From the NCBI GenBank assembly GCA_051362555.1, contig CM120647.1, positions 5,580,001 to 5,644,000 of the forward strand: a stretch of 64,000 nt of DNA. The letters are read 5' to 3'. This document shows, piece by piece, positions 6,806 to 60,001 of this stretch. The number at the start of each line of letters is the position of its first letter. Positions within the stretch are counted from its first letter, which is position 1. The stretch comes from Lingula anatina (Eukaryota; Animalia; Brachiopoda). The position numbers were made by a program, and so were the translations under genes. The notes beneath the pieces were generated by a model. That model worked only from the letters and a program-made list of their open reading frames with translations, was not told the origin of the DNA and made no database searches.

Positions 6806-7122
6806 CTGAAAGACGAAAGAGGAATAAATAAATAAATAAGTAAATAAATATAGATAAATTAACTGTTTTTGTCTGCAGGTCATTTTGCCAAACAGACAGT
6901 TAAGATTTAATAACTTTAACGTACATGTACAGGTGATGTGCACAAAGATTGGAATGAAAATATTTAAATTAATCTTTTCTTTCAGAGAGAGTTTATGGTA
7001 ATTCAACATCAACGCAACTTTCAGAGTAATATTTTATCTACGCAAGATCACATTTAGTCTGAATTGCATAATTTTACACAGTGACTTCATGCTATTTACG
7101 TACGTTCTTTACCTCTTTACCG

Positions 7123-10100: not shown

Positions 10101-10487
10101 AATTAAGCCTAAAATATCATTTTTTTACTTACATAAATCTTTAACTATATTAAACGTTACTCTGTCCAACGGACATTTTCATTTGTCAAGTGGTCATTAA
10201 CAGAAATTAAAGACAAAAGACGGAAACGATATGGATGGGCCTTCATTACAATGACGTCATAAAGACAGACAACAATGCACTCCAACAGAATCCCACGCCT
10301 TTAAAGACATAACTGAAATACTTCACTTCATACTGCATCAAGATAAAACATCAACTTCTAGTGCACAGATTCATCGAACAAAAAAGAGACAGTACCAGAA
10401 ATTAGCTTTTTTTCTCGCGGAAAATTCGTTTTGATGCGAAGAGCAAGATCACAAAGATCTTATAAGGATACTTTTAAGTATAACTCT

Positions 10488-10531
<44 letters not shown>

Positions 10532-11974
10532 ATACATGCGTGCGTGCTCTTACCGTTACCTCTTTTCTCCGCCTCTATGTCAGTGGCTTTGTCGTTTACC
10601 TTTTCAGCTCTATACCCTCTATACCCTAGATAAAGAAATAATAATTGTTTAATAGTATCTTGCCCGTGACCAAAATAACAGCAATGGAATATCTCCCCAA
10701 ACTTTATTCACTTGAAAATATACCGTTTGTATTTTAAGATGTGCCAGAGTCATATATTCCTACGTCTAATTATCTCACCAAACAAAATCTATTTTCCAAA
10801 CCAGAGATTTAAACGAAAAAAACAACAACAAAATATTACCTGGTGTAATCACTTTTGTCTGCATAGTCAAGAAGTCAAGGCGGTTTAAATGAATCATAAT
10901 ATACTTAGAACTATTTTTTCATCAGGCTTGCTATAAATTTCTCAGTTGGAAAGAGTTTTTTCTTCGTCTACTTACCGTACCTATACGGATACCCTGAAAG
11001 AAAACATGTAGGTTGCAATTGAATGTGTTTTCTGTTACCATAATAAAAATGGCGATAATAAAAGCGTATGGTCACAGGATTTTTGAGATTGCAACGCCAA
11101 TTTTGTGATCCAATTTTATTAACAAATCAAATGTCTCTAAATGGCTCTCATTATTATTTTTAAAAAATTAAAAACCATCTTATTTATAGTATATTTTGAT
11201 TAAATATATCTTTTAGTTTTTAATAACTTTTATAATTTGTTTGTTTTTTATTTATGTTTTATATACATATGTAATCAGCGCTGAGACGCTTGTGTGGTGC
11301 GGTTTTAAGAAATAGATTATTATAATTATACAACTATTCATTTTAATAATATAAATTCACGTTCATGTGTTTGCCTATATGTTTCAATATTAAGTGTTTG
11401 CAGGTACTGTAGGTGTTACGTTTGGTCACCGTAATATCCGCCATATCTCTTTACTTCGTCTTCAGTCTCACTGGCGGCGACTTCTTGGTCTTCTAGCACT
11501 ATTATATTATATTATATTATATTATATTATATTATATTATATTATATTATATTATATTATATTATATTATATTATATTATATTATAATTAAGCAAGTATT
11601 TTATTATTCAAGAAAACTCAGATTGAAATCATTACCTAGATATTTAAAATCTGATTATTTTAGCAATATCTTAGATAACACACAGAAACTCATATATATT
11701 TAAGACCCCACACACGCTCACACAAACAAGCACAAATACGGGTAGACACAACCACACACATAACAAATCAAAAGATCAAAATAAAACGCAAATGTGCAAG
11801 CACACACATATACACACCCAAAATCAAGAATACCTAAAAACAAAACAAAGATACAAACTTAGACACACACACAAAACACACACACACTGTTTTCTTACCT
11901 CTCTCTCCCAATACTCCTACATGCATAATAACCAGCCCACAAACTAGGAAGAAAAGAAGAAGTGGATTCTTCAT
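7123..11974 (-). CDS. Gene B: secreted KR-processed Gly/Tyr/Arg-rich repeat peptide precursor (~178 aa, 11 coding exons)
   Basis: Exons: 11899-11974 (signal MKNPLLLFFLVCGLVIMHVGVLGER), 11430-11498, 10976-10993 (18 nt), 10554-10625, 9920-9973 (shifted acceptor), 9492-9500 (9 nt), 8966-8977 (12 nt), 8519-8590, 7678-7722, 7372-7434, 7123-7169 (GEDANINLLKRLLDL*). All internal exons are multiples of 3, phase 1-1, and join without a stop. Confidence 0.8.
11501..11586. repeat. (ATTAT)n pentanucleotide microsatellite at the exon-2 acceptor of gene B (also 24068-24126 in gene C)
   Basis: Directly visible; absent from gene A at 2884-2890. Confidence 0.95.
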
Positions 11975-16690: not shown

Positions 16691-16735
<45 letters not shown>

Positions 16736-19030
16736 CCCATGATACATGTCTGTTAGGTAAGTAATGTTCATATTTGATCATTTTGGGGAAATCCAAGATG
16801 GCCTTCTTTTCCCCATAGGAAAACTGGTGCATTGGATTTTATAGGCACTTCTACGGCAAATCAGGGTCATTATGATATTTTGTCAAAATACTTAACGGTA
16901 CACACTTGTAATCCACCAGATAGATATCTCAAAGTCCAAAAAGAATGTGAAATACCAAGAAACAAAAATCATTTTATAATGAACCCAATGTCTCTCTGGC
17001 ACTAGTTGACTGTACTATTCCTATTGTGAATTGCAGCAATCTTGAATTTTCTCAAATACGCTAGATGCACACTTGCTACACCCCAGATTTATATAGAGTA
17101 AGGTTAATAAGGATGTCAACGTGTTTGAACATCAAACGGCTTTATTTCATGTTGGAATCAATGTCTGAACTGTTCCATTAATTGACACCTCTGTGCATTT
17201 GAATGATATATTCCTATCGCAACTGGCAGCTATCCTCGGTTTTCTCCGAATAATACTCAAGGATACATACACTTTCTACACACACACACACAAAGTCTTT
17301 CATAAGGATAAATAGGATATGAAAGGGAAAACGTTTAAAAACAATCAAAAGTTAACTACATTTAAATTGTACTCAGTGTATCTCTGGCATTATTTGATTA
17401 TGTGTACGAATATTCTAATGACAAAAGGCAGATATCTTGAATTTTTTTCAGAATACCCAAAGATACACACATGCTACAGACGAGGTTTACATCATAGGGG
17501 TAATAATAAATGGAAAGAAAAATGTAGATTATTTTTAAAACAAACCCATGGTAATGTAATTGTATAATGAACCACATGCCGCAATTGAAACCCACCCATT
17601 AGTATTCCTATGTCAAATTGTAGCTATTTTGGATTTTCTCAGAATATCCATGGATGCACACTATTTCCCCACCAGATATATATCATAGGAATAATAAGGA
17701 TGGGCAAAACTTAATAAGCAAACACAATTTCACCCTGGTAGTAGATGAAAAGCCATGGATGTGCAGTTGTAATTCCAGTAGCATTCCTATGGCCAATGAC
17801 GGCCATCTTGGATTTTCTCAGAATGATCAAAAATGCACATTTATTACCTGCTAGATATGTATCACAGTGTAATAATAATGTGTAAAACACTGAAAAATAA
17901 ACTGAATTTGACAGTGAATTATGTTTTTCCTAGCTGGCATTAGTTCTAACCCTTTGTAATACTAGAAGAATTCCTATGACATATGGCGGCCATCTTGGAT
18001 TTTCTCAAAATGCCCAAGAATACATGTTAGTAACTCACCACATACATTGTGTGGGTGGAAAGGATGTGGAAAACACTCAGAAACAAACTTAATTTGATAG
18101 TGGAAAATTAATCTTTCCAGTTGCCATTAGTTGAATCTCCCGTATACTAGAATTCCTGTGGCACATGGCAGCCATCTTGGATTTTCCAAAATGCCCAAGA
18201 ACACTTCGCAGTTTCTCACCACAAACATATTATGTGGGTAACAAAAACCTGAGAAACAGACTTAATTTGATAGTGCACAACATATCTTTATAGCTGGTAT
18301 TAGTTATGCACTAGATTTCCTATGGCTGTTTCTATGGCATATGACAGCCATCTTGGATTTTTTCAAAAAGTCCAAGGGAACTTGTTTACTATCTGACATA
18401 TATGAATAAAATGGGAAATAAGGGTGTGGAAAACTCTGAGTAAATAATTTATTTGATAAAAATAAACATGGGTATGTACATATTTCTAAAGAATTCCATA
18501 AATTGGCGGCCATTTTGGATTTTTTGACCAAACGGTAAATTGTTTGAGAGGGCTACGGCTCTAATTTGATTTAGAATGTCAAAAGGTAACTACATGCCAA
18601 ATTTGGTGCTTTTATCCGCCGTGTCACGATTTTTTCCTTAAGCCACCGGACTAATACAAAGTTATATTAAAATATCGAAGTAGGTATGCAGACACATAAT
18701 TACTGAAGCAGCTTCTGTAAACTTAGATGATAAACGAAAGTCAGGTGTTCTCACCTGCCATAAAAACTGTTTGCAAATGAATTTTATCACTAATTCAAGT
18801 TTCTAACTATAAAAAACTGTTCGCATGCGTGTGTTCTTACCGTAACCTCTTCGGTTCAGTTCGTCGTCGGTCTCACCGTCGAACACCCGCTGGGTTTTAT
18901 ACCCTGAAATGGGACGACAAAAATCAATGCAAAGCTTTTTTTCTGTCACAAATATGGGACCAAATATGGGTGCATTTTTAAGAATTAAAATACAGAAAGA
19001 TACAGTTTCCATGCAGTTAATTTCCCATTG

Positions 19031-19062
<32 letters not shown>

Positions 19063-19226
19063 GTTTATTCATTATTTCATTACTTTCCCCTAAGGCCCAA
19101 GTGTATGTTCCTGTGAGCTGTAGTTGGTTAGTCGTCACGTTTGTACATGTATGTTTGTGTGTTACCTCCGAAACGCCGTTTATCGTCGTTAATCCTCTGG
19201 GCTCTATACCCTGAAATTGAGCAGGC

Positions 19227-19258
<32 letters not shown>

Positions 19259-21373
19259 TGTTTTATTTTATTAAAACTTTTTCAATGATTGTGCATTTTC
19301 ATAAAAAATGAGTTTTTCTATATCAAAAATTGCATTGTTGCATATAACGCACCATGACTTTTTGGCGAAAAGAACAAGGTAACAAGGACCTTTTAAGGAT
19401 ACTTTTAAATATAACTCTTTGTGTGTGAGTTGTTGTTGTTGTTGCTGTTTGTATGAGTGTTTTTATCCATGAAGGTGTGCTTTCACCTCTACCTCTCTTC
19501 TCTGTCTCTATGTCGGTGGCTTTGGCATTTGCCTTTTCAGCTCTATACCCTAAATAAAAATAATAATTGTTTTGCAGTATCTTGCCCGTCATCAAATAAT
19601 AACAATGGAATATCTCTCCAAACTTTATTCACTTGAAAGTACCGTTTTTGTTTTAAGATGTACTAACGTAATATATTTCTTCGCCTTATTATCTCACCAA
19701 CCAAAAATTATTCTTCAAATCAGTACCAAGTGCCATTATATTAGGCTGCAAAGACAAGACGACATCGCGGTTTAAATGAGTCATAATAAGCTGAGAACTA
19801 TTTTTCCATTCAAAATGCTACAAAACAGCTATCACAAATAAAGGAACGGACCGGGCAATGATTTCTCAGTAGGAAAATGCATTGTCTTCGTCTACTTACT
19901 GTACCCATATCCTGAAACAAATAAGGAGGTTCCAAATTTATATTTCGTCTGTTGCCATAATAAAAACGGCGATGGTCACAAGCCATTTGAGACTTCAAAA
20001 CCAACTTTGTGATACAATTAAATTACCTAACCAAATGTCTTTTAATGACTCTGACCATTTTTTTTAAATTAAAAACCTTTTTAATTTAAAGTATATTTTG
20101 ATCAGCTGTATCCGGGCAATGATTCATCAGTAAGAAAATGCACTTTCTTCGTCTACTTACGGTAACACCTTCGTCTACTTACCGTAATATCCTGAAACAA
20201 ATAAGTAGGTTCCAAATTAATATTTTGGCTGTTACCATAATAAAAACGTATGGTCACAGGATTTTTGAGACTTCAACACCAACTGTGTGATCCGGTTTTA
20301 TTACCAAAAAATCGTCTTTTAATGACTTTTAATGACCATTTTTTTTAATTAAAAACCTTTTAATTTAAAGTATATTTTGATCAATTGTATCCTTTAGTTT
20401 TTAATTACTTTTATCACTTAGTTTTTAATTCATTTGTGCAGTTTTAGTTTTATATACATATGCTGAGACGCATTTAAGAAATAAGTAATTGTCGTTATTA
20501 TTATAAAATCATTTTGTTTATATCTGTTCACGTTTATGTGCTTCCGTATGTGTTTCGATATTTTGTAACTGCAGGTATTGTAGGTGTTTTGTTTGGTCAC
20601 CGTGAAATCTCTTCATTTCGTCTTTTTCATCACTGTCGTCGACGTCTTGGTCGTCTAAAACTGGAATTAAGCAAGCATTTTGTTATTCAGAAAAACTGTT
20701 TCATAGACAGCATTGCCTAAGTAATTAAATTCAGGAAAATTTTGAAGTAACAATTAGATAACGCACCTAACTTCATATATTTAATTAAACCTTTCACACG
20801 CCTCCCCATGTGTCGTCCCAATGGAGCCGAGATTTAATGACTGTACCCCCACAGGGACGACGCATAGGGAGGCGTGTGAGAGGCGGAGAGACTATTAAAA
20901 GATTAGGCGGTTTTCCTTTCATGTATGTATGCCATATTTAGTTCGTGACTTTGTAGAGCCATGGCTCAACTCATTGTGAATGCGGTCCTACAATATCTTT
21001 TTTTTTTTTACTTACATAAATCTTTAACTATTTCTAACGTTACTCTGTCCAACGGATATTTTCATTTGTCAAGTGGTCATTAACAGAAATTCAAGACAAA
21101 ACACGGAAACGATACGGATGGGCCTTCATTACAATGACGTCACCAAGATAGACAACAATGCACTCCAACAGAATCACACGCCTTTGAAGACATAAGTGAA
21201 ATACTTCACATCATACTGCATCAAGATAATTAAAACTTCAACTTCTAGTGCACAGAGTGATCGAACAAAAAAGAGACAGAAGCAGAATTTTGCTTTTTTT
21301 TCTCGCGAAAAACCCGTTTTGATGCGAAGAGCAAGATCACAAACATCTTATAAGAATAATTTTAAATATAACG

Positions 21374-21414
<41 letters not shown>

Positions 21415-23154
21415 TGTATGTTTATATACATGCGTGCGTGCTCTTACCGTTACCTCTTTTCTCCGTCTCTGTGTCAGTGGCTTTGTCGTTTACCTTTTCA
21501 GCTCTATACCCTCTATACCCTAGATAAAGAAATAATTGTTTTATAGTATCTTGCCCGTGACCAAAATAACAGCAATGGCATATCTCCCCAAATTTTATTC
21601 ACTTGAAAATATACCGTTTGTATTTTAAGATGTACTAAAGTCATATATTTCTACGTCTAATTATCTCACCAAACAAAAACAATTTTCCAAATTAGAGCTT
21701 TAAACGAAAAAAAAACAACAAAATAGTGCCTGGTACTATAATTTTTGGCTGCATAGTCAAGAAGACAAGGCGGTTTAAATGAATCATAATATGTTTAGAA
21801 CTATTTTTCATCAAACTTGCTATAAATCTCTTAGTTGGAAAAAGAATGTTCTTCGTCTACTTACCGTACCTATACGGATACCCTGAAAGAAAACATGTAA
21901 GCTTCAATTAAATGTTTTTTTTTTTGTTTTTTTTTTTTTTTAATATAATTTCATAATAAAAAAGGCGATAATAAAAACGTATGGTCACAGGATTTTTGAG
22001 ACTACAACACCAATTTTGTGATCCAATTTTATCAACAAATGTGTCTTTTAATGGCTCTTATCATTATTAAAAAAAGGTACGTTTTTATTTACATAATGTT
22101 TTGATTAACTGCATCTTTTAGTATTTAATTACTTTTATAATTTATTTTTTATTTAGCTGTGCACATTAAGTTTTTAATATACACATGTAAACAAAGCTGA
22201 AACGCATGTGTTGCCTTGTTTTTGAGTAATTTATTATTGTTATTATTATCATTATTATTATAATTATTTTAAAAAAACATTCATTTTGGTAATATCAATG
22301 CACGTTCGGGTGCTTGCATGTATGTTTCAATGTTATGTGTCTGCAGGTACTGTATGCTTAGGCTCTATTCCCATAGATTTTAGATCGATCTATCCCCGCG
22401 GGGAGTCTCACTAGATTACTTTCAGATAATCCGACTTAAATGTCCGTCCCGCCTACTACAAGCTGTAAGAGGGTAATTAACTTTCGTGTCCGCCCGGCTG
22501 ACAGCTATTTAGCGTGAACCCCCAGGGAGTTAGGTCGATCTAAAGTAGGTCGATCTAATCTATGGAAATGGGGTGTTAGTTTGCATGGTCACCGTAATAT
22601 CCGTAAGATCTTTTCATTTCGTTGTTTTCATCACTGGCGCCGACATCTTGGTCTTCTAGCACTGGAATTAAGCAAGCACTTTGTTATTCAAGAAAACTAT
22701 TTGATAGACATCATTACTAGCTTAGCACTTTAAATCAGGGTTAATGTTTAGTAATAGCTTAGATAGCACTTTACCTCACATATTTTATGAAGCCCACATT
22801 TTTTGTTATTGAATAATATCATTTTTCAAATCTTTTCACTTAAATGCACTTTTACTTATTTCAAACGTTTCAATACCCAACGGATAGTGGTTATTAACAG
22901 AAATCAACGACAAAATACGGATAAAATATTAGCAGAAACCAACGATTTGAATAGACATTTATTCACATGACATCATAAAGATAGACAACATTGCACGCCA
23001 ACAGAATCAGACGCCTTTAATACTTCACTTAATACTTCACTTCATACTACATCAAGATAAAAAGGATACTATAAATATAACTCGCTCTCGCTCTCTCTCT
23101 ATCTCTCTCTCTTTTTCTTTCCTCTCTGTGTATTTGTTGTTGTTGTTGTCGATG

Positions 23155-23192
<38 letters not shown>

Positions 23193-24519
23193 GTTTATAC
23201 ATGCGTGCGTGCTCTTACCGTTACCTCTTTTCTCCGCCTCTATGTCAATGGCTTTGTCGTTTACCTTTTCAGCTCTATACCCTCTATACCCTAAATAAAG
23301 AAATAATAATTGTTTAATAGTATCTTGCCCGTGACCAAAATAACAGCAATGGAATATCTCCCCAAACTTTATTCACTTGAAAATATACCATTTGTATTTT
23401 AAGATGTACTAAAGTCATATATTTCTACGTCTAATTATCTCACCAAACAAAAACTATTTTCCAAACCAGAGCTTTAAACGAAAAAACAACAACAAAATAG
23501 TACCTGGTACAATAATTTTTGTCTGCATAGTCAAGAAGACAAGGCAGTTTAAATGAATCATAATATACTTAGAACTATTTTTTCATCAGGCTTGCTATAA
23601 ATTTCTCAGTTGGAAAGAGTTTTTTCTTCGTCTACTTACCGTACCTATACGGATACCCTGAAAGAAAATATGTAGGTTGCAATTGAATGTTTTTTCTGTT
23701 ACCATAATAAAAACGGCGATAATAAAAGCGTACGGTCACAGATTTTTGAGACTACAACACCAATTTTGTCACCCAATGTATTTTAACAAATCAAATGTCT
23801 CTAAATGGCTCTTATAATTATTTTTAAAAATTAAGAACCATCTTATTTATAGTATATTTTGATTAAATATATCTTTTAGTTTTAAATAACTTTTATAATT
23901 TAGTTTTTCATTTATCTGTGTAGTTTTAGTTTTATTCACGTTCATGTGTTTCAATATTTAGTGTCAGCAGGTACTGTAGGTGTTATGTTTGGTCACCGTA
24001 ATATCCGCCATATCTCTTTACTTCGTCTTCAGCCTCACTGGCGGCGACTTCTTGGTCTTCTAGCACTATTATATTATATTATATTATATTATATTATATT
24101 ATATTATATTATATTATATTATTATAATTAAGCAAGTATTTTATTATTGAAGAAAACTGTCAGATTGAAATCATTACCTAGGTACTTAAAATCTGATTAT
24201 TTTAGCAATATCTTAAATAACACACCAAAACTCATATACATTTCAAGCTCCCACACACGCTCACACAAACAAGCACAAATACGGGTAGACGCAATCACAC
24301 ACATACCAAATCAAAAGATCAAAATAAAACGCAAATGTGCAAGCACACACATATACACACCCAAAATCAAGAATACCTAAAAAAAAAAAACAAAGATACA
24401 AACTTAGACACACACACAAAACACACACACACTGTTTTCTTACCTCTCTCTCCCAATACTCCTACATGTATAATAACCAGCCCACAAACGAGGAAGAAAA
24501 AAAGAAGTGGATTCTTCAT
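15871..24519 (-). CDS. Gene C: secreted KR-processed Gly/Tyr/Arg-rich repeat peptide precursor (~230 aa, 14 coding exons)
   Basis: Exons: 24444-24519, 23997-24065, 23640-23657, 23219-23290, 22593-22661, 21865-21882, 21448-21519, 20601-20660, 20183-20191, 19900-19911, 19487-19549, 19166-19210, 18841-18903, 15871-15917. Joined translation: MKNPLLFFFLVCGLVIIHVGVLGERVLEDQEVAASEAEDEVKRYGGYYGYPYRYGYRGYRAEKVNDKAIDIEAEKRGNVLEDQDVGASDENNEMKRSYGYYGYPYRYGYRGYRAEKVNDKATDTETEKRGNVLDDQDVDDSDEKDEMKRFHGYYGYGYRYRAEKANAKATDIETEKRGRGYRAQRINDDKRRFGGYKTQRVFDGETDDELNRRGYGEDANINLLKRLLDL*. Confidence 0.82.
15935..18653. mobile_element. Non-autonomous DNA transposon, Academ-like (TAG...CTA termini, long TIRs, 3-bp TSD ATA)
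   Basis: Left end TAGTCCGGTTGCTTAGGG...CGTGACACGGCGGATAAAAGCACCAAATTT matches the reverse complement of the right end over roughly 300 bp. ATA is duplicated at 15932-15934 and 18654-18656. The empty site gtcATAcaaag is present in gene B at ~7181. Internal ~120-bp 'gccatcttggattt' subrepeats; no transposase ORF. Confidence 0.85.
20790..20988. mobile_element. Truncated copy of the palindromic MITE seen at 28862-29163
   Basis: Near-identical core cacacgcctccccatgtgtcgtcccaatggagccg...gggaggcgtgtgagaggcggagag; absent from the gene B equivalent intron (~10110). Confidence 0.7.
22361..22575. mobile_element. PIF/Harbinger (Tourist-like) MITE, TTA TSD
   Basis: TTA on both sides (22358-22360, 22576-22578); TIR ...ttcccatagattttagatcga / tcgatctaatctatggaaat. 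Same family as 28539-28764 and 58636-58849. Confidence 0.75.
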
Positions 24520-24589
24520 AGCTAAATTCCGATCGGTTGTCGCCACGTCTGTGATTTTACAAGCAGTGTCCGTTTATCGGTCAAAGTAA

Positions 24590-24643
24590 AATGAGCTGCT
24601 GGCTGATATTCGCGGCTATGATATCATTTGGGAGTCACGCCCA
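24590..24643 (-). promoter_or_regulatory. Core promoter of gene C with degenerate TATA (TATCATA)
   Basis: Aligns with the A/B promoters; TATA position 24617-24623. Confidence 0.55.
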
Positions 24644-25748
24644 CCTCTCTGTCACAACTTTAATAAGAGTGTGGACCTGGGGAGTGACTGGGTTCCCATA
24701 CCTACATCGATCTAACTGGATAGATCCATCTCCGAGAGGTTAATCGCTTAATTGCTTTCACCCTAAGCGGCTTCGATATCTGCGGCTCACCTACTGAGGC
24801 TGCTAAATAATAATTAATTATTACCCTCTACCAGGGTCGCAGTTATATTTGTGGACATTTTTGGCTGAATCGACATCAAATCAAAGTGACGGTCTATTTA
24901 TCTAGAGACATATCGGTGAATATCTTTGGAAAATCTTTCTATCGCCCTGGTAGAGGGTAATTAATTACCACCTAGCAGGTTCAGTAGGCGTAACAGACAT
25001 CTAAGCTTCATAAGTTGATTTCAATTTAGGGAGAATCTCCTCGAGGATAGATCGATTCACAGTTAGTACGGGAATGGTCCCTAAATGAAGCTGTTTATCA
25101 TCATAAAAGCGTGACAACCGTAGAGGAGATACCCACCTTGGGATATAATCAACCACGATATAGAAAATTGCCGGACAAGATATTTTTGTGCGCGGTGACT
25201 TCGATTACATTCAGCAATTTTTCTCATCATGAAAACAGAGTTCAAAAAAGGCTTTAAAAACGGCTGTTGAATATTTCGGAAGAGGCAGCTAGGTGGTTTA
25301 ATTTATTAATTCCCGTTTTCTACGACAATGGTTTTAGAAGAACAGTCATGTATGCATCACTATTTAAGAACCATGAGCGACTGTTTTATTTAAAACAGAA
25401 GAAAATAACACAGTTGTCCTGAAAATCCGATAGTTCCAAAAGTTTCTTCCGTCTCAATTCAGAGGCATTTTTATAATGCAAACCTAATTTGCGTTATGTC
25501 GGTCCTGTATATCATCATACTATCAGTTTACACATTAATCAGGTGATGCGATAATATTTTATCGGGTATGTCATTTAATAAACATGCATATTTCCTTTTG
25601 TGGTATATAAACTGTGTCGTTAACATTGGAACTCATCCTTAGTTCATATACACCAGTAGTGTTGTCAAAACAATTTAATGTAAAACAAGCAAGAAAAAAA
25701 TCCCAGCGTTATCTTTGCTGAGAGAGAGAGAGAGAAGAGAGAGACCCT

Positions 25749-25801
<53 letters not shown>

Positions 25802-27489
25802 GAAAGCAATGCTTGAGCCCTACTTGGAGTCAGAGCATACCGGGTAGCTATACAATACAATAACCTGCATCACTGATAATCTCCGACAACTTTCCTGGAC
25901 ACATTTTCATCCCAAACAGGTAAATCAATGCCACAATGAAGTTACGCCACTGTGTCATTAATACCCCCCCCCCTCTACGCGTTATGAAGGTGTCGATTAC
26001 GTCACTATCAAATTAACACCACCTATCCCGCTCAGGTGACTTCATTATGTGCCAAAGGTAAAGACAGGGGGTGGTATCACAGTCTGTATGAAATGTAACT
26101 GGGAATTTTAATGCTGTAAGAATGAGAAACGCCCAGAGGCATAACGTGCTGATTCGAGAATCTGACTCCTCAAAAATTAATAAAGATTAATAAAGAAAAC
26201 TGAAAAGCATGCCGAAAGCGCAGGCCCCCACCAAAGCAGTTCAGTTCTTACTGTTATTTATTAATCAGTTTCTCAATAATTTAATTAGCTTAATTATCAT
26301 TATTATTTATTACTTTCTTGTTCACTCATTGATCAGCATTTTTTTCACAATTTACCAATTAATTCTTTCACTGATCAACACCAAAATCGAAACTATTCCT
26401 TAACTGTTCGGAGAGTTTTACCAAAATCTCTCAACAATTTTTGCATATTGATGCTTATGGACACACAACCAAATGAATTAACTAATTAATATTTAACCAC
26501 TCCCAACAGTTTCTGAAAATCTCACCAAATTACGTCCAGAAATTTTTTTCGTGATTTTGCCAACAAAGAAGCAGATAAAGGGAACCAAACATATAAAGTG
26601 ACCTCCTTGGCAAAAGCAATTATAATGTAGAAAAGAAAAACCTTTTTATTTAAAGAACATTTTACTTTACTTTTATCTTTTTGTTTTAATTTTGTAATGT
26701 AAGTTTTTAATTTATCTTAAATAGTGTATGTAAATATTTAAATTAAAATATGTAAATTATTTAAAGCGCCCCATCTACTTTGACACTGTAAAAATACGAT
26801 ACGATTTGTCAGAGATTTCGAAGGGAAAGTCTATTAGACATGTCCTGCAGAAAAAGAAAAACAAACAAACACAGAATGTGTATTTCTAAGCAGCAATAAA
26901 GACACTAAAAAAGGGAAGAAAGAATGCAAATATTATGTAGTCTCTACGTGCTCGAAAGAACCTTTTTTTTTTTTTTTTTTTTGCAACCACTAACGCGTTC
27001 ACTTCTACACCATTCAAAATAAAACACTGAAACTATTGACGGGAAATTATTATATATTTTCCATTCAACTGGCGGCAAAGGTGAATTTTCTATTAAGAAT
27101 TAACGATTACATGGACGACTATTTTGATCGGTAAGGCATACTATGCACGTTAGATCATTAGATGAAAAATACCGAATATCACGGATACAGCATAGCAAAA
27201 CAAAATGACGAACAATGACAATATTGACAATATAAATATATATTTAAAAAACTCATATTATTTAAAATTACACTTAAGGTATGTATTATGGCTTAGGATC
27301 TAAAGTTAACTTTCCTGAGGATTTCAACCATTAGTTGTCAGTCACAAAGATACTTCCTATACGAGATGGTTGCATTATTTTAATGGGTAGGAGCGCACAC
27401 AACATCTATACCATTCAACTATCACACACTTTTAACACATCTGGCTTTCGAACAAATTGGAAAAGAAATAAGAAACACAAGGTACATTT

Positions 27490-27980
27490 ACACTATATCG
27501 CTTTTTATTGACTGTTTAAGTGCTTGCTTTTCAGATATCGTTTGATAAGAAAACAAAGTTGGAGAATAAATTTAACAGTATAAGGATCATATTTTAAAAC
27601 AAAATGGATTGTTTTAATTCTACAAAAACATTAATCACTTTATACTATTACTAATTGCGATCTAAAATGATCGAAAACACCATCAAAACATGACCAGTGA
27701 CCAAAGCAGACTGTCTGGATGTCATGATTATAACATTAATTACACGTTGCCCATGCCTAAGATGGTCAGTTGTTTGTTCTTAATAGTTCAAAATCTGTTT
27801 GCGATGAGATATGTTGAGAAAAGGACCAGTTGCATCAAATACACACAAATATTTTGATATTTCGCCAATCAGATCATTGATTTTTTTAAATCTCCGGCAC
27901 GATCTTGTACCAATCCAAGTTGACTCTTTCAGGAAAGCGGAAGTCACGTGTTGGAAGGATAGTGAGCCCAGATGATACAA
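27490..27980 (-). other. Non-coding last exon (3' UTR) of gene D
   Basis: Conserved acceptor at 27980; AATAAA at 27504-27509; ~120-bp deletion relative to B/C at ~27733. Confidence 0.62.
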
Positions 27981-28363
27981 CTGAAAGACGAAAGAGGAAT
28001 AAATAAAGAAAAAGATAAAACTAAATAAGTAAATAAATAAATAAATGAACTGTTTTTGTCTGCAGGTCATTTTGCCAAACAGACTGTTAAGTTTTAATAA
28101 CATTAACGTGCATATACAGGTGATGTGCTCAAAGATTGGAACGAAAATATTTAAATTAAACTTTTCTCTCAGAGAGAGCTTATGGTAATTCAACATCAAC
28201 GCAATTTTCAGAGTGATATTTTATCTACGCAAGATCACATTTAGTCTGAATTGCATAATTTTACACAATGACTTTATGCTGTTTACGTATGTTCTTTTTT
28301 ACCTCTGATTTATTGAATATAATATATAATATTATGAACTATTGTTACTTCTTTCACATTACC

Positions 28364-31300
28364 TTAGTGCTTTTTCCTTTGAAGATCCAGGAGTCGTTTA
28401 AGCAGGTTGATATTGGCGTCTTCAACTGAAAACAAAGTCATACAGAGCTACAATAAAAACATCAGATGTGGGTATTCAGACAAATAATAATTGTCTGCAG
28501 ATACATATATAATTACTGAAGCAGCTTCTGTAACCTTAGGGTGCTTTCCCAGAGATTTAGATCGATCTAAAGATTAAATTTTAGATCGACCTAACTCCCT
28601 GGGGGTTCAGGCTTAATTGCAGTAAGCCGAGCGGACACCATAGTTAATTACCCCCTTACAGCTTTTAGTAGGCGGGACAGACGCTTAAGCCGGCCAAGCT
28701 GACAGTAATCTAGTGAGACTCCCCACAGGGATAGATCGATCTAAAAATCAATGGAAATGGGGTGTTAGATGATAAACTCAAGTCATGAGTGCCCAACTAC
28801 CATAATTTATCACCATAAAAACTCTTCGCACACGTATTTTATCACAAATTTGTGTTTCTAAGATCGCATTCACAACGAGTTGAGCCAGGCTTTACAAATC
28901 CTGGGGACTAAATATGGCGGACGTACATGAAAGAAAAACCGCCTAATCTTTTAATAGTCTCTCCGCCTCTCACACGCCTCCCCATGTGTCGTCCCAATGG
29001 AGCCGAGATTTAATGACTGTCCCCCCGCAGGGACGACGTGTGGGGAGGCGTGTGAGAGGCGGAGAGACTATTAAAAGATTAGGCGGTTTTTCTTTCATGT
29101 ACGACCGCCATATTTAGTCCCCAGGATTTGTAAAGCCTAGCTTAACTCGTTGTACATGCGATCTAAGTGTATGGATACTGCAAACAGAGGGGTGACAGCA
29201 TTCTATTACGAATTTCTCTATCTGTTAATTTTTTCATAATGTTGAATTTATCTATACGACCTAAACAGTCTGTCCTTGCGTCGGTTACGACGTGTGTATA
29301 TGTATGTATGTTACCTTTGGAGTGGCGTTTCTGTTCGTCATCGTTGTCACCGGATTTGTCGTTAACTTTGGTCCCATAGTAACCTGCAGCAGATAGAGGT
29401 TATTGTCATTTAGATTTTAGTTTAATGTTTCCAAAATTTCGACTGTTTTGCATTTTATCTGACGCAATTTGTTTAATCACAGAAACACCTTCTTACCGCG
29501 ACCTCCTCGCTTCAACTCGTCATCTACGTCACTGTCGTCCACCCGCTGAGCTGCATACCATGAAAATAAGACGACAATTTATTATTCTCGTCTGCTTCAA
29601 ACATTAAGACAGTCTTACCGTTTCAGTTTCGGGATTTATATATATTCTCTCTGTAATTTGTTTCGAAAAAAAAGTTACATACATCTTCGTTTCATGTTTA
29701 CCATATCTCTTTATAGCATAAAAGAGTGTGGTTATTGGTTATTTATTATGTGTGTACAGGTATGAGACCGTCTATGTTCCTACTACAGTAAAATGCATGT
29801 GTGCACTGCCGTGTGTATATGTACTAGCACGTGTTTATGTTTACGTGCGTGTGTGCTTACCGTGAACTCTACCGTAACCTCTTCGCTTCACTTCGTCATC
29901 CACGTCACTGTCGTCCACCCGTTGAGCTCCATACCCTGAAAAGTGGGTGACTATTAAATATTCTCGTCTGCTACAAATATTAAGACAGCGTTGCATTATC
30001 ACAGGTTCGGGGTCAATTCTATTTGTAATTTTTTGGGAAAATGTTACATACATATTTACGCCTTTCATATCCCTTTATAGAGTGCATGAGTTTGTGAAGG
30101 CGATTGGTTATTGATTATGGGTGTGTATATATGAGAGCATGTTACCTCTGGAAGCTTTGAAGCGCCGTTTCTGTTCGTCGTCAACGTCGTTAAGTTTAGC
30201 TCGGTAGTAACCTGAAACAGATATAGGTTATTATATTTAGCCTTTTGTTTGTTTCTAAAGTTTCTATAGTTTTCCATTATCGGTCTTAAGGTATAAAAAC
30301 AAATAGATATATTTTGACTCATAAAAACCGTGGGTTTCTTTCTGCAGCGTAATGTTTTTTATCGCCCCAGAATTTATTTTAAATGCAGTGCAAACCTATT
30401 CTTACCATTTCAGAAACCATTATTTCTGCCCTAAGCTTGACAAAGATACTACTTCAGGTAGAATGCATTCGTGCAGGGTAGTGTGACCATACGCGTGTGC
30501 ATGAACCTGCACGTGTTCATGTTTGTGTGCGTGTCATCTTACCGTAACCTCTTCTCTTCACCTCGTCATCTACGTCACTGTCGTCCACCCGCTGAGCTGC
30601 ATACCATGAAAATAAGACGACTATTTATTATTCTCGTCATAAAGACAGTCTAACAGTTTCAGTTTCGGGATATATTCTCTCTGTAATTTTTTTTTCGTAA
30701 AAAGTTACATACATCTTCGTTTCATGCTTTCCATATTATTATTTCCATATTTATTATGTGTGTACAGGTATGAATGCGTCTATGTTCCTACTACAGTAAA
30801 ATGCATGTGTACAATGCCGTGTGTACCAGCACGTGTTTATGTTTGCGTGCGTGTGTGCTTACCGTGAACTCTACCGTAACCTCTTCGCTTCACTTCGTCA
30901 TCTACGTCACTGTCGTCCACCCGTCGTTGAGCTCCATACCCTGAAAAGTGGGTGACTATTTAATATTCTCGTCTGCTACAAATATTAAGACAGCAATGCA
31001 TTATCTCTGTTTCGGGGTTAATTATATATTTTTATGTTTGCTATCTATCTGCATCATACGGTATTTTTAGTATTCATTATCGCCCTAGAATTTATTTTAA
31101 ATGCAGTGCAAACCTATTCTTACCATGGAAGAAACCATTATTTCTGCCATGAGCCTGACAAAGATACTACTTCAGGTAGAATGCATTCGTGCAGGGTAGT
31201 GTGACCATACGCGTGTGCATGAACCTGCACGTGTTCATGTTTGTGTGCGTGTGTTCTTACCGTAACCTCTTCGCTTCACTTCGTCGTCTACGTCACTGTC

Positions 31301-32164
31301 GTCCACCCGCTGAGCTGCATACCATGAAAATAAGACGACTATTTATTATTCTCGTCATAAAGACAGTCTAACAGTTTCAGTTTCGGGATATATTCTCTCT
31401 GTAATTTTTTTTTTCGTAAAAAGTTACATACATCTTCGTTTCATGCTTTCCATATCCCTTTATAGCATAAAAGAGTGTGTGTGTTTGTGATGGCCATTGT
31501 TTATTTATTATGTGTGTACAGGTATGAATGCGTCTATGTTCCTACTACAGTAAAATGCATGTGTACAATGCCGTGTGTACCAGCACGTGTTTATGTTTGC
31601 GTGCGTGTGTGCTTACCGTGAACTCTACCGTAACCTCTTCGCTTCACTTCGTCATCTACGTCACTGTCGTCCACCCGTCGTTGAGCTCCATACCCTGAAA
31701 AGTGGATGACTATTTAATATTCTCGTCTGCTACACATATTAAGACAGCATTGCATTATCACTGTTTCGGGGTTAATTATATATTTTTTATGTTTGCCTTC
31801 TATCTGCATCGTACGGTATTTTTAGTATTCATTATCGCCCTAGAATTTATTTTAAATGCAGTGAAAACCTATTCTTACCATTTCAGAAACCATTATTTCT
31901 GCCCTAAGCTTGACAAAGATACTACTTCAGGTAGAATGCATTCGTGCACGGTAGTGTGACCATACGCGTGTGCATGAACCTGCACGTGTTCATGTTTGTG
32001 TGCGTGTGTTCTTACCGTAACCTCTTCGCTTCACTTCGTCATCTACGTCACTGTCGTCCACCCGCTGAGCTCCATACCCTGAAAGGTGGGCGACTATTTA
32101 GTATTCTCGTCTGCTTCAAACATTAAGACAGTCTAACAGTTTCAGTTTCGGGATTTATTCTCTC

Positions 32165-32201
<37 letters not shown>

Positions 32202-34638
32202 TAAAAAGTTACATACATCTTCGTTTCATGCTTTCCATATCCCTTTATAACATAAAAGAGTGTGTGCGTTAGTGATGGCGATTGGTTATTTATCATGTGT
32301 GTACAGGTATGAGAGCGTCTATGTTCCTACTACAGAAAAATACATGTGTGCCTGTATCGATGTAAAGATATTAAATCACATTTACACCGTGGTCATGAAA
32401 ATTTCCTTATATTTGTTTTCTTTCGGCTGTGCACGGTAACGTTAATAGTTACTTATCGCCCAAAAATTAATTGTTAATGCAGCGAAAAACTATTCTTATC
32501 ATAGTATAAGCCATAACATTCAGGCAAAATTAATTCTGCCACGACCCTGGCAAAGATTCTGCTACAGGTAGTATGCATATGTGCGATGTCGTGTGGTCAC
32601 ATGCGTGTGTATGTGCCGGCACGTGTTCATGTTTGTGTGCGTGTGTTCTTACCGTAACCTCCATAATGTCTACCGTAGCCTCTGCGGTTCACCTCGTCAT
32701 CTACGTCACTGTCGGCCACCCGCTGAGCTCCATACCCTGGAAAATGGGTGACTATTTAGTATTCTCGTCTGCTACAAACATTATGACAGTGTTACATTTT
32801 CACAGTTTCGGGACTTATTGTTTTTTTTGTTTTTTTGTTTTTTTGTTTGTTTGTTTTTTGTTTGTTTTTTTTTTACGAAAAAAGTTCCATACATTTTCGT
32901 TTCAAGCTTTTCATATCCCTTTATAACATAAGAGAGTGTGTTTATGATGGCGATTGGTTATTTATTATGTGTCTACAGGTATGAGAGCGTCTATGTTCCC
33001 ACTACAGTAAAATGCATGTGTGCACTGCCGTGTGTATATGTACCAGCACGTGTTCATGTTTACGTGCGTGTGTTCTTACCGTAACCTCTTCGCTTCACCT
33101 CGTCATCTAAGTCACTGTCGGCCACCCGTCGTTGAGCTCCATACCCTGAAAAGTGGGTGACTATTTAATATTCTCGTCTTCTACAAATATTAAGACAGCA
33201 TTGCATTATCACTGTTTCGGGGTTAATTATTTATTTTTTATGTTTGCATTCTTTCTGCAGCGTACGGTATTTTTAGTATTCATTGTCGCCCCAGAATTTA
33301 TTTTAAATGCAGTGCAAACCTATTCTTACCATTTTAGAAACCATTATTTCTGTCCTGAGCTTGACAAAGTTTCTACTTCAGGTAAAATGCATTCGTGCAG
33401 GGTAGTGTGACCATATGCGTGTGCATGAACCTGCACGTGTTCATGTTTGTGTGCGTGTGTTCTTACCGTAACCTCTTCGCTTCACTTCGTCATCTACGTC
33501 ACTGTCGTCCACCCGCTGAGCTCCATACCCTGAAAGGTGGGCGACTATTTAGTATTCTCGTCTGCTTCAAACATTAAGACAGTCTAACAGTTTCAGTTTC
33601 GGGATTTATTCTCTCTGTATTTTTTTATTTTTTTTTTTATTTTTATTTTTATTTTTTTGTAAAAAGTTACATACATCTTCGTTTCATGCTTTCCATATCC
33701 CTTTATAGCATAAAAGAGTGTGTGTGTTTGTGATGGCGATTGGTTATTTATTATGTGTGTACAGGTATGAGAGCGTCTATGTTCCTACTACAGTAAAATG
33801 TATGTGTGCACTGCCGTGTGTATATGTACCAGCGTGTGTAAGTACTAGCACGTGTTCATGTTTGTGTGCGTGTGTTCTTACCGTAACCTCTTCGGTTCAG
33901 TTTGTCGTCCACCCGTTGAGTTTTATACCCTGAAACCGAACAAGAAGATGACTTTTACGTGGCCCATCTGCTACAAACATTTACAAAGCCTTGCATTTTC
34001 ACAGGATCGAGATTTTTATTACTACAATATATGTTTTGTAACTGTTAATATTTACAGATTCAAACTTTTTTCTTCAAAAATGTAAAGAGGACAGTAAGTA
34101 TTATATTATATTACATCACTTGTATGCCTAAAATAACCCACTTCAGTGTCTAAGTGTATGTGTGCTTGATTGCGATAGTTTTTTTTTTTTTTTTACGTGT
34201 ATGTGAGCGGCTTACCTCGATATCCCCTTTTCTTCTCATCGGCTGAAACCGAACAAAAATATAACTATTTAATGTTCTTATATGCTTCAAACATTTCAAT
34301 TACGGTGCATTATCTCAGATTCAATTAAATCTTCCTTTTTATCATAGTTATACGTAAAAGACAGTGTTAAAAAATGGACAAATTATTTGAAATAATTTGT
34401 CCATTGTTAAAAGCAAAAGTTTCTTCGAGGTAAGATATACGGGTAAGATGTAAGATGTCTGTCATAACTGCACTATGATTTACAAACAGACTAATTTACT
34501 GATGTAAAAAGATACATTTTAGTTTGGAATTATACACCTAAAGGCACTGATAATTAAGTTCAAATTCACTTTTTTACCTCTAAAATGTTCTTTGTGAATC
34601 TCTCTTTTTCTGTTAACACAAAGGCAACAGACCACATG

Positions 34639-40681: not shown

Positions 40682-41187
40682 TTATTTCTTTCTCCGTTGA
40701 AGATCAATGAGTCTTTTAAGTAGGTTGATATTGGCGTCTTCAACTGAAATAGAAACCATACAGTTATAATTACAACACTGCAGGCAAGTCGAGAGAAAAT
40801 AGGAGACCGGTGTTGGTTGACCCATTAAGACACTTTGGCCTGGTACAATTTCATAGATGCGAATTAATGCTTTTATCACAGAAATGTAATTGTCACAAAC
40901 AGTATACATCTGTATATAGCGCTACACATATCTCCTTTTAAAAAAAGAAATGTGTCTATTTGGCGTGACTGCATGTGAGTGTAAATTCATCATAAATGTA
41001 CATGTATGTGAGCGTGCGTACACTTCTTACCTCGCTTACTGCCACTTGGCAGTTTGGGATTCGCACCTGAAATCGAACGAAAGAAATGATTAAGTTCTCA
41101 TGTGCCACACAGCAGTGTTGCCTTTTCACAAATTGGGGGTTTTCAGTGCAAAGTATTCTACATGCTTTTCAATAAGCTATTCTTAAC

Positions 41188-41222
<35 letters not shown>

Positions 41223-44200
41223 TTTCAGCAATGTATTATTCACCTGAAGAGTAGTTTACAAAATTCACATCTTGATCATCATCATCTGAGTTGTCGGCAA
41301 TCTCCTTAACTTTATATCCTAAAATTGAACAAAATTAGTTCATTTTCATGCTTTCTTTACTTCCGTCATTATATGCTTATACATACATAACAGTACACCG
41401 GAAGATATGTCTAAAATGCAGTTGTCATATTCACTTATATTGCTTAAATGTTCTGCTTTAGTGTATGTATACATGGTTTTATACCTTATAATCAAACGAG
41501 CAAACTTTTTCACCTGGGCCTGCTACTTTTTTAGCAAGAATAAGAACGCTCTAACAACAGAAATGCACGGTGGCCCGTCAAATTTCAATTCCATTTTTAA
41601 CATATTTTTATATTAAAATGAATTACATTAATGTTCTGTTTAAGTGACCATGCGCGTGTGTTTGTTTGTTTGTTTGTTTGTTTGTTTGTTTGTTTATACG
41701 CCAGTGAGAGCGGGTATTTGGAATTTTTCACGTGTGAACCTGTATGTATGTATGTATGTATGTATGTATGTATGCGTGTTACCTCCATAAGCTCGTTTAT
41801 CGTCGTTAACCCGCTGAGCTGGTCTACCTAAAATGGAACAAAATGTCTTGTGTAAAAGTTTAACGATGGTGCATTTTTGAAAATGACAGTTTGCTGTAGA
41901 AAACGGCTGGTGAGAACACACTGATCTAGGTTTTATCTTTCTTCATGCATTTGGATCGTAAATATAAAGCACCACCACATTTTTTCTATACTCAAATTTC
42001 TTTCGATATTGTTACATTCAGCCATATGGCTTTCACATTTCAATATGAGTAGTGGAATGAATGTAAACGTGATGGTGATTGGCTATCAATCACGTGTGCA
42101 CAGAAATGTATGCGTGGTACCTCTGTAGGAAGTGGAAAGGCGTTTCTCCTCGTCGTTTATGCCACTGTCTTCGTCGTTGACCTTAGCAGCACCACGGTAT
42201 CCTGTAACACAGATAGATAGGTTCTTATATAATTAAGTTTTATGTTTGTATTCAAACTTACAACATATTTTTATTTAATCTACCGAAGAATAATCACAGA
42301 AACACTTAGTCGTTTCAACAGGCATTTCCATGTTCAGTTCACAAATATAATCCCCAGACTTGTATATAAATTTTATTGGAGTCGCTTGCTAGTGTAATCG
42401 ACTCGTTGTATGGCCTTGCATGTATTTGAGTAATTAAAGTAAGTATGCACCCCCAAACAGTGCAGCATTGAATCCACCATAGATAAAAAAATATGCAATT
42501 AAAACATTCAGAAGTAATATCTGGGGTTTGAGATGAGAGAAATAGGGAGACCGCCTGGGAGAGCTAGGTAGACGAACCCGAGCCATGGGAGATGGTTCAG
42601 AAATTTAGGCTTCGTGCTACAGAAACATACAGTGTATGGATCGTAAATATAAAGCACCACCACATTTTTTCTATACTCAAATTTCTTTCGATGTTGTTAC
42701 ATTCAGCCATATGGCTTTCACATTTCAATATGAGTAGTGGAATGAATGTAAACGTGATGGTGATTGGCTATCAATCACGTGTGCACAGAAATGTATGCGT
42801 GGTACCTCTGTAGGTAGTGGAAAGGCGTTTCTCCTCGTCGTCTATGCCACTGTCTTCGTCGTTAACCTTAGCACCGCGGTATCCTGAAACACAGATAGAT
42901 AGGTTCTTATATTATGATTAAGTTTCATATTTTCATTCCAAATCACAACTTATTTGTATTTAAACGGCCGAAGAATGTCCCATCACTGAAACATCATAGA
43001 GCAGTTGGCATTACCACTGTAACCAGAAATCTAAATGAGTGTATGATTGAGATCGATCGAGAATATAACAATTTTATGTTTATGAAGGCTCCCCCATTTT
43101 GAACAGTCGTGCATTTTGGAAGATCTAAAAACATTACAAATACAGAAATGTTAACATCATTTTGCGTTTTTTTTTTATTAATAAAACATCAATATTATGC
43201 TTTAAGGCCCATGTGTATGTGTCACGTGTGTACATGTATGTGTGCGTGTTACCTGCGGGCCTTCGTTGATCGTCGTTAACCCGCTTGCCTGAATAAGACA
43301 CTGAAATGAAACAAAATAATATCTTCATTATTTCAGCGTTTGTTGCATTTTTGTAGATGGCAATTTTTCTTGGAAAATGCCCGCGAGAACAAAATGATCC
43401 TACAGCCTTTTATGATGCGAGCATTTTGAAAGCGGAGCATTTTTCAGAAACTTAGGCTTCTTGCTACAAAAAAAATACGGTGCACTGGGAATGTCCCTTT
43501 TACAATTATCCAATTGTGGGTTGTTACATGTATTCTTGACAAGTGGTGCATTTGTGAAGATGCCAGTTTCTTCTACAAAAATTGCAAGCGAAAACATGAT
43601 AATTAAGTGTCCTTGTTTCTAACAATTTGCTTCAGTGCCCATGTGCATATGTTCTTCACTTTGAGTGGGGTTTTGTCGCGTGTGTACATGCATGTATGCG
43701 TGTTATCTCTTCGTTTATCGTCGTCCACCCGCTTGCCTACATAATACCCGAAAGTGGAAGAAGATTTTGTTTTGCAAATTTCCTACACTGGTGCATTTTC
43801 CTAAATAAAAGTAACCTCTGGCAAAAAAAAACCAACAAAAATATGAAGATTTGACGTTCCATATGTGTCAACGACTGTGGGCATTCATGGAAAACGTGTG
43901 TACATGTACGTGTGCGATTCACCTTGGTCTCCTCGTTTATCGTCGTTAATCCGCTTGCCTGCATAATTTGAAATGGACTAAATATGTCTTCCACAAAATT
44001 TCAAAAGTTGGTGCATTTTCGGTGATCGCCAGACCAACAAAGCGTCTGGAGAGGTTTTGTTTGCTGATGATTTAACAATTGCTTCACAATATAGTTCAAG
44101 ATCTACGTATTCTCATTAACAGCTATATGACTGTGTTACCTTTATAGCAAGTTTCGCCACCAAATATTAAACAGTTTTTAAAAGTTAAGGATAATTTTAA

Positions 44201-47200: not shown

Positions 47201-48444
47201 TTCGGTCTACTACACTTGTCAGCATGCATACGGTTTCGTTGCACGTGAGCGTGCGTGTGTGTAACCTCTACCATTTTTTTTTCTCATTGTCTACGTCACT
47301 TTAAGACACCCACTGAACTTTCTGTCGAAAATGTAAACGCTACGGTAACGGTATTTTCAAGAAATAAGAAAGCTTAATTATGATCTCAATCTCTTAGTTT
47401 CTGCTTCTTGGTGCCTTTCCGCTTTTTTATGACTGTTAACATACCATTTTTGACTAATGTTGCAAACATCTAAACCGCCTTAACATCGACCATTATTATC
47501 ATATGGTATATTCACTATTATTACCAATCAATTTAACATTTTACTTTAGTGAACATCTGTACGTGCGAAAGACTGTTATTCATCACGTGTGTACATGTAT
47601 GTGTGCGTGTTACCTCTGTATCCACGTTTATCATCATTAACCCGCTGGGCTCTATATCCTGTAAAAAAAACAAGAATCAAGATTTCTGTTAAAAGAAAAC
47701 GTTTGATCAACTACGCGTGCCACCTTGCACAGGGTATATTGATGCGTGTTTGCATGTTATATCTACCTTTCACAGCTTAATACCGTAAAATCTAATAAAG
47801 GCATGATGACTGAGTCTCCCAGCCAGTTGTTGTCTCTTCACTTTTTTTTCTCCATGATTCTATATGTATCTATACGTTTAAATATTCCGCTTTATAGTGT
47901 CAGTGTGTACATGTGTGTGTGTGTGTGTGTGTGCGTGTGTGTGCGTAGTGGCGCCTGGTTATTGATAATGGGTGTACAGGTATGTGTGCGTGTTACCTCC
48001 GTGGGGTCGTAGGTTTTGTATCTCCTCGTCTTCTATGTTGCTGTCTTCCGCGTCAGCCTTACTAACCCAGTAACTTCCTAAAACAGAGATTGGAGTGTGT
48101 GTGTGTATGTGTGTGTATGTGTGTGTGTGTGTCTTATATTGGTCACTTCGTTATTCGCTGATAACACGCTGAACTCCATTCTAAGAAAACGCAGAAGAAT
48201 ATATTTCATTTTATTCTCCGTTGTTTCAACATTTGTCTTAGAAGTGAATGTTTGATGGAGCACGCGAATCAGCATGTAAATGGGGGTAAATGTTTTCTTT
48301 GCACGTGGGCATGCGTGCATCTTACCTCTTCCTCGTTTCTCCTCGTCTTCTAAGCCACTGTCTTCGTCGTTCACCTGGGTGCCTGCATAGGAGGCTGAAA
48401 CACAGATATGTTATTATTATTATTACCTCTGCCATGCAGGTCAC

Positions 48445-48487
<43 letters not shown>

Positions 48488-49269
48488 TTTTATTTTTCTA
48501 TTAATTTAATTTATTTATTTACTTATTTATTTATTTTTTGGTTCCGTTAGTCTCTTTATTAATTTGTCTGTCTATTGGCAAAATTGTGCAGAAAATTTAT
48601 GGATGAATTTGATATTCCGCTTTAGTGTAGTGTCAGTGAGTGTGTGTGCGTGATATAGCGATTGGTTAATGGTTATTTCAGTACATGACTACGTACTTTT
48701 ACGACCTGGAGGCCCTTCAGGTAAGTTTCGTTTTTCCTCGTCGTCTACGCCAATGTCTTTGTCGTTAACCTGCGTACCCGCATAGGAGGCTGAAACAGAG
48801 ATACCAGCATGTTATTATAAGAGAGAGCGCAGGTCTTAGCTGTAAGAAATTACAGACCATTAACAACGTATATACATGTACCTGGAAGTACTTTCAAGGA
48901 AGATAGCAATATATGAAAACTACAAAACAACATTCAATCCATTTCGGCAAATGATCCGAACTGTATGATCAAACGCATGTGTCAGCATACATGTGGGTGT
49001 ATATGTTTGCTGTGCATGTTACCTTTTCCTCGCTTTTCCTCATCATCTACGTCACTGTCATCCGCTCGTCCACGTTTCGCTGAAAGCGTACAAAAATATA
49101 ATTATTTCATGTTTTGTCAGCTACCGGAATGTCAACATTTTATTTTCAAGCATAAGACACATGTTACTATATTTTTAAAATATTAGAATTTTGTTTGGTA
49201 GAATTTTCACTGTGTGTGTTTGCACTGTTTGAAAACCAAGGCATATTTTCACAATAAAGTTCAATTGAG

Positions 49270-49343
<74 letters not shown>

Positions 49344-52808: not shown

Positions 52809-52845
<37 letters not shown>

Positions 52846-53376: not shown

Positions 53377-53410
<34 letters not shown>

Positions 53411-53722: not shown

Positions 53723-53765
<43 letters not shown>

Positions 53766-54621: not shown

Positions 54622-54670
<49 letters not shown>

Positions 54671-59962: not shown

Positions 59963-60001
<39 letters not shown>

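Follow-up and report, generated by a model that had tools for sequence, protein, structure and literature searches.

Tandem genes for predicted secreted peptide precursors with splice junctions inside the repeated block in the brachiopod Lingula anatina

Introns inside mature peptides, peptide precursors with phase-1 introns throughout, and symmetric micro-exon genes with exon skipping are already known, as far as the accessible parts of the articles cited here go. For the honeybee apidaecin precursor splice variation was proposed but not shown (PMC1847501); the all-phase-1 genes of beetle periviscerokinin (Capa) precursors are alternatively spliced, the RNA depth often being too low to show splicing (PMC6585902); and exon-skipped forms of calcitonin precursors have been described (PMC6586643). 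The present analysis concerns a stretch of 64,000 nucleotides (nt) of the brachiopod Lingula anatina, hereafter the window (assembly GCA_051362555.1, contig CM120647.1, positions 5,580,001 to 5,644,000), in which an earlier reading of the sequence, the original prediction, had placed at 18841..33929 putative mature peptides split by introns and possibly assembled in combinations by exon skipping.

Sequence reading together with an exon scan revealed five tandem genes on the minus strand of the 64-kb window, designated A to E. Each of the five opens with a phase-1 exon (E, 60012–60081; A, 34830–34899; B, 24444–24519; C, 11899–11974; D, 3199–3274) coding for 23–25 hydrophobic residues, a predicted signal peptide as judged by its pattern, and the last exon of all four complete genes carries an INLLKRLL-like motif. 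The interval 18841..33929 was found to comprise most of gene A and most of gene B, that is two genes, whose boundary is marked by a stop-codon exon (28364–28425) followed by the new signal exon at 24444–24519. With all exons joined, gene A (16 exons) encodes 336 amino acids and gene B (14 exons) 230. With moderate confidence, we read the cluster as tandem genes for predicted secreted multi-peptide precursors, in which a junction inside the peptide block was copied together with the exon and its introns, the exons are mostly joined in order, and the product is cut at KR/RR.

The phase-1 symmetry originally claimed for all exons was confirmed for all 26 internal exons, 14 in A and 12 in B, which are of phase 1-1 and a multiple of three nt (3n) in length. 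A rule-based scan for exons with an acidic spacer and KR gave 57 candidates in phase 1 of the minus strand, all 57 of 3n length, these being scan matches, not curated exons, and non-independent cases owing to their shared duplication ancestry. In phases 0 and 2 of the minus strand the same scan returned one and two candidates; the plus strand had none, and 30 shuffles averaged 0.07. An origin of the exon pattern by chance is excluded. A KR/RR site was present in all 22 non-micro internal exons (14 in A, 8 in B), and in both genes the donor lies 2–9 residues after the last dibasic site. The exon layout regarded as typical, i.e., the C-half of one peptide, an acidic spacer, KR/RR and the N-half of the next peptide, was found in 13 of the 14 internal exons of A but in only 5 of the 12 of B, where three exons begin directly with the spacer and four are micro-exons of 9–18 nt without spacer or KR. 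Micro-exons of this size thus account for 4 of the 26 internal exons of both genes, and exons of 27 nt or less for 5. The block that follows KR does span a splice junction, as had been proposed; the C-terminal end of the "mature peptide" was an assumption.

In gene A (minus strand), the signal-peptide exon (34830–34899), with its phase-1 donor, is followed by exon 2 (34216–34242; spacer, KKR and GYR), exon 3 (33882–33929; C-half GYKTQR, N-half GY), exon 4 (33467–33529), which is the typical 63-nt unit and is identical to exon 7 (32016–32078), and exon 5 (33080–33145). Exon 6 (32653–32736) has the N-half GYGRHYGGY, longer by 21 nt; exons 8 and 10 (31617–31694 and 30863–30940), identical to each other, have the N-half GYGRVH, longer by 12 nt; and exon 12 (30146–30211) has the N-half FKASR. 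Exon 13 (29861–29935), exon 15 (29315–29383) and the last coding exon (28364–28425), with the INLLKRLL motif and the stop codon, complete the gene together with exons 9 (31261–31314), 11 (30543–30596) and 14 (29497–29550), which have a shifted acceptor. After all three GYGRVH exons the ancestral acceptor AG reads AT and a new AG lies 9 nt further in, exon 9 thus starting with AQR. For this reason, the junction product GYGRVH+GYGAQR of the original prediction is not formed; the actual joint is GYGRVH+AQR, seen in four RNA reads, whereas the other four of the five quoted products do arise from neighbouring exons.

In gene B (minus strand), the signal-peptide exon (24444–24519) encodes the same first 24 residues as isoform X1 of Lingula LOC106162183. 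The middle of the Gly/Tyr block is supplied by four micro-exons, namely exon 3 (23640–23657, 18 nt, GYPYRY), exon 6 (21865–21882, 18 nt), exon 9 (20183–20191, 9 nt, GYY) and exon 10 (19900–19911, 12 nt, GYGY). The remaining exons are exon 2 (23997–24065; spacer, KR and YGGYY), exon 4 (23219–23290), exon 5 (22593–22661), exon 7 (21448–21519), exon 8 (20601–20660), exon 11 (19487–19549), exon 12 (19166–19210), exon 13 (18841–18903) and the last coding exon with the stop codon (15868–15917), located beyond the interval 18841..33929. Three donors are of the weak gtgacc type, and one acceptor is devoid of a pyrimidine tract. In exon 2 of genes B and C the acceptor pyrimidine tract is replaced by an expansion of a 5-nt microsatellite, (TATTA)n, at 24067–24122 and 11500–11586, respectively; the tract is intact in paralogue D, and exon 2 of B and C is a candidate skipped exon.

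The introns flanking the exons of gene A are homologous: of 91 pairs on each side, 71 upstream and 49 downstream ones exceeded the 99th percentile set by random pairs. Self-BLAST showed nested duplications of 0.5–4.7 kb with 75–97% identity, and an exon triplet is present in two copies in B and in one copy in C. The duplication unit is the exon plus intron. Since each exon was duplicated together with its flanking introns, the junction position is common to all copies, and the in-block junction is inherited through this copying rather than being a repeated design. A symmetric phase is what tandem exon duplication needs, and the symmetry is therefore no evidence of skipping. Of 28 junctions, 19 split a Gly codon; such a codon is favoured by the G|G splice consensus for phase-1 introns and also fits a Gly-rich block. 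The pN/pS ratio of the exons was 0.41 (pS 0.111, pN 0.045), as compared with a divergence of 0.135 in the flanking introns, the ratio being derived from 30 hand-picked, non-independent exon pairs; the exons are under purifying selection. The visible diversity is genomic and comprises gene duplication, exon copy number (including that of the exon triplet), donor-end insertions (the N-halves longer by 12 and 21 nt), in-frame acceptor sliding (9 nt in A; 6 nt in a single exon of C) and micro-exon inserts. Because the predicted peptides straddle the splice junctions, in-frame sliding of splice sites and small insertions at exon ends rewrite them, and one such slide is used in RNA.

Any skip would remain in frame and bring together N- and C-halves in a new pairing, as originally stated, and no forward exon pair creates a stop codon. 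With assumed block boundaries, joining all exons yields 13 blocks in gene A, 8 of them distinct, and 5 distinct blocks in gene B; over all exon subsets (16384 in A, 4096 in B) the number of distinct blocks reaches 25 and 106, respectively. The combinatorial potential is real, and it is larger in B, which also has the weaker splice sites. Compared over 31 nt on either side, few of the possible skip junctions coincide in sequence with a junction of neighbouring exons (7 of 105 in A, 2 of 78 in B).

Four of nine raw-read RNA runs labelled with the species were mapped over 15750–34760, the gene A signal exon (34830–34899) and gene E lying outside this region; joints were listed from three reads up, and the statements on joints cover 15 of 44 (12 of the 21 rows of the joint table). 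Gene A exons were covered in one of the four runs (X1), at a depth of about 4–8 per exon base, the bin at 29.1–29.7 kb being inflated by a repeat. The gene A reads had their first mates on the plus strand, as is expected for minus-strand RNA in most stranded libraries. The exon bins of gene B were at or near zero depth in each of the four runs. Of the 14 introns covered in gene A, two occur among the joints listed, and both connect neighbouring exons. Nine reads join exons 12 and 13 (29936->30148, with one letter between), which corresponds to the intron 29936–30145 with one differing base, and four reads join exons 13 and 14 (29548->29861, with two letters between), which corresponds to the intron 29551–29860 with the shifted acceptor. 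The look-alike pairs of exons 8–9 and 10–11 are a possible source of the latter joint, which would be of the same type either way. No exon skip was present among the joints listed, at about 4–9 reads per junction, and this depth is too low to rule out skipping.

High read depth at 22.1–22.7, 28.4–29.1 and 15.9–18.7 kb was rejected as a gene signal and assigned to dispersed repeats. One short dispersed repeat (about 22360–22578 and 28530–28760, with a similar copy near 58640–58850) was covered to a very high depth in each of the four RNA runs, with many loose ends, and probably forms part of other transcripts. A joint of 65 reads, confined to X1, connects two different repeats at 16307 and 28677 and likely derives from a transcript elsewhere in the genome.

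The combinatorial assembly suggested by the original prediction is a possibility that the scant RNA data do not support: both listed joints link neighbours, and the symmetry is explained more simply by duplication. Frequent skipping, by which new N- and C-halves would be joined and micro-exons added or dropped to give more peptides than the in-order genome encodes, would agree with the stop-free, in-frame nature of every skip, with the larger number of distinct blocks (25 instead of 8 in A, 106 instead of 5 in B), and with the micro-exons, the three gtgacc donors and the tractless acceptor of B. It has precedents in schistosome micro-exon genes and beetle periviscerokinin and is compatible with a drop of read depth over five exons of gene A. 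We nevertheless consider it unlikely, given the lack of a skip among the joints listed, the strong ACG|gtaag donors and good pyrimidine tracts of most A exons, the (near-)identity of many A exons, so that many skips alter copy number only, the duplication that accounts for the symmetry, and the RefSeq isoforms of the Lingula relative, which are without an internal skip. A splicing-driven peptide library, in which skipping of phase-1 exons and micro-exons would build mature Gly/Tyr peptides from separately encoded halves, as many as 25 distinct ones from gene A and about 100 from gene B and mostly not encoded by neighbouring exons, is improbable. It is likely that some skipping is tolerated.

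Several points weigh against in-order joining and the precursor model as a whole. Only 13 junction reads, from one run and among 15 of 44 joints, bear on the exon order, which is thus weakly tested; gene B has weak splice sites and four micro-exons; the function is argued by analogy only, and the cleavage is predicted from sequence. In addition, in X1 the depth over A exons 7–11 (30332–32233) falls to 0–1.3 per exon base, against 3.6–7.9. This dip was not used as evidence, as identical exon copies confound read placement; it may reflect read placement, an allele with fewer exons or block skipping.

With assumed boundaries, the blocks are 8–20 residues long, carry a net charge of +1 to +3 and up to 40% Tyr, and alternate with the acidic spacers. 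At the C-end of most blocks a single R or K is followed by V, I, L or A, without a dibasic site. A single basic residue before an aliphatic one is disfavoured by convertases, a point for which the literature search gave no confirmation, so the spacer may be part of the released unit. The same C-ends, together with a near-neutral net charge (−2 for A, −7 for B), segregated blocks and 8–12% Tyr, would also suit a protein that stays whole, acting as a block polyampholyte (Tyr/Arg-rich versus Asp/Glu-rich) in adhesion, shell periostracum or chaetae, in which case no "mature peptide" would be split. Lineage-specific low-complexity proteins do occur in Lingula shells (PMC13425148). We regard an uncut protein as quite unlikely, however, since in A and B all 22 internal exons other than micro-exons have kept KR/RR through changes of the spacers, and gene E has G-KR motifs; the absence of the family motifs and RefSeq identifiers from two shell-proteome supplements points weakly in the same direction, as the tables may use other identifiers.

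The signal peptide, dibasic sites, acidic spacers and G-KR motifs of gene E, as well as low bulk expression and the C-terminal LLKRLL motif, would likewise be in agreement with a Lingula-specific family of multi-copy neuropeptide precursors. The five tandem paralogues and their fast turnover, the fact that A and B have neither a C-terminal motif in common nor an amidation signal, and the absence of the motifs from the brachiopod proneuropeptide supplement of PMC8557429 speak against this reading, which we consider unlikely.

In the preferred model of secreted, cleaved precursors, the repeat exons arose by copying along with the introns on either side, every copy inheriting the junction inside the Gly/Tyr-rich block, and the exons are likely to be joined mostly in order. 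The precursor would then be exported by means of the signal peptide, its packaging may be helped by a C-terminal INLLKRLL helix, and the acidic spacers would neutralise the cationic blocks; a convertase would cut at KR/RR and free cationic Gly/Tyr blocks of 8–20 residues, with or without the spacer. By analogy, an exocrine secretion of the defence type appears to be the most likely use, a tanning or adhesive role being nearly as plausible.

A HMMER search with a 28-exon profile against 1.84 billion representatives gave two matches at E<=0.001. The credible one was isoform X2 of L. anatina LOC106162183, an uncharacterised RefSeq entry; the other, a fluke protein of 2303 amino acids, had no aligned stretch and was treated as compositional noise. 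The only relatives found were the two RefSeq isoforms (X1/X2) of this locus (XP_013394820.1), which resemble the cluster in having a signal peptide and a repeat unit of up to 77% identity across 22 residues but differ in that their repeats are not in the window and the models lack the INLLKRLL end. X1 and X2 differ only upstream of the repeats, all three of which are common to both. In a word-based homologue search the exon profile gave nothing among longer proteins, and LOC106162183 as query found only its own isoform and nothing longer. Pfam showed no family at threshold and only a sub-threshold GIT_SHD match, with nothing for the LOC106162183 isoforms, and PDB gave no matches. Two motifs of the family and three identifiers had no match in the full-text literature, subscription papers and bioRxiv supplements being outside reach; nor was a family member found by motif in the supplements of PMC8557429, PMC4595640 and PMC13425148, where tables under other gene identifiers would be missed. 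In that of PMC8557429, four repeat motifs had no matches, and the matches to MKNP and NLLKRL were other proteins. A nemertean vasotocin-related precursor also ends in INLLKRLL. The architecture is real and the family is undescribed in print; it adds a fast-evolving family of secreted peptides from a little-studied phylum.

All further paralogues are on the minus strand. Paralogue C (7120..11974) has the exon triplet as a single copy, and paralogue D is represented by its 5' part (375..3274), as the gene extends beyond the window edge. Paralogue E (40683..60081), the annotation of which is partial, is much richer in repeat exons; in several of them a second AG lies in frame 12 nt from the exon start, and some have amidation-like G-KR motifs. 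It also contains an internal 4.7-kb duplication. The last intron of gene B harbours a 2.7-kb element (15935–18653) with terminal inverted repeats of about 630 bp and TAG...CTA ends, presumably Academ-like, which shows a 3-bp ATA duplication as compared with the empty site in paralogue C. In gene D, one intron carries, at 1098–2534 on the minus strand, a 478-codon stop-free 3' fragment of the reverse transcriptase of a long interspersed nuclear element (zf-RVT, E 2.6e-9). Palindromic insertions resembling miniature inverted-repeat transposable elements are located at about 20790–20900 (gene B intron) and 28860–29170 (gene A intron).

Among the described systems, the apidaecin precursor shares with the cluster a signal exon followed by repeated peptide exons that vary in number and sequence, but each of its exons holds a complete Pro-rich unit, whereas in the cluster the junction lies 2–9 residues inside the Gly/Tyr block (PMC1847501). 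The layout of anionic linkers and cationic peptides is common to the cluster, apidaecin and the spider cupiennin precursors (PMC1847501, PMC7889660). In the latter, anionic linkers with an Arg at either end lie between the linear cationic peptides; these precursors differ in using single-Arg quadruplet motifs instead of KR/RR, and alternative splicing was only speculated on in the accessible text. All coding exons of beetle periviscerokinin genes use phase-1 introns, allowing varied precursors, as would be the case in the cluster; these genes have 4–7 exons, compared with 14–16 or more here, they belong to a conserved neuropeptide family, and junction-built peptides are not described in the part of PMC6585902 available. 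The NPF family resembles the cluster in that an intron interrupts the mature peptide, but it has a single peptide, a phase-2 intron and no repeats (PMC6585902). The micro-exon genes of Schistosoma (PMC4015677) likewise combine a signal peptide with short symmetric exons in gene families; unlike in the cluster, skipping was demonstrated, micro-exons make up to 75% of the coding sequence as against 4 of 26 internal exons, and no dibasic processing is described in the accessible part of that article. A peptide library made by skipping would, if true, mean that a brachiopod diversifies its short secreted peptides at splice junctions. If skipping proves common, the cluster offers a direct test of the long-proposed, unshown idea, put forward for apidaecin and cupiennins, that splicing makes peptide libraries; if it is not common, the cluster shows plainly how duplication of symmetric exons can mimic a combinatorial design.

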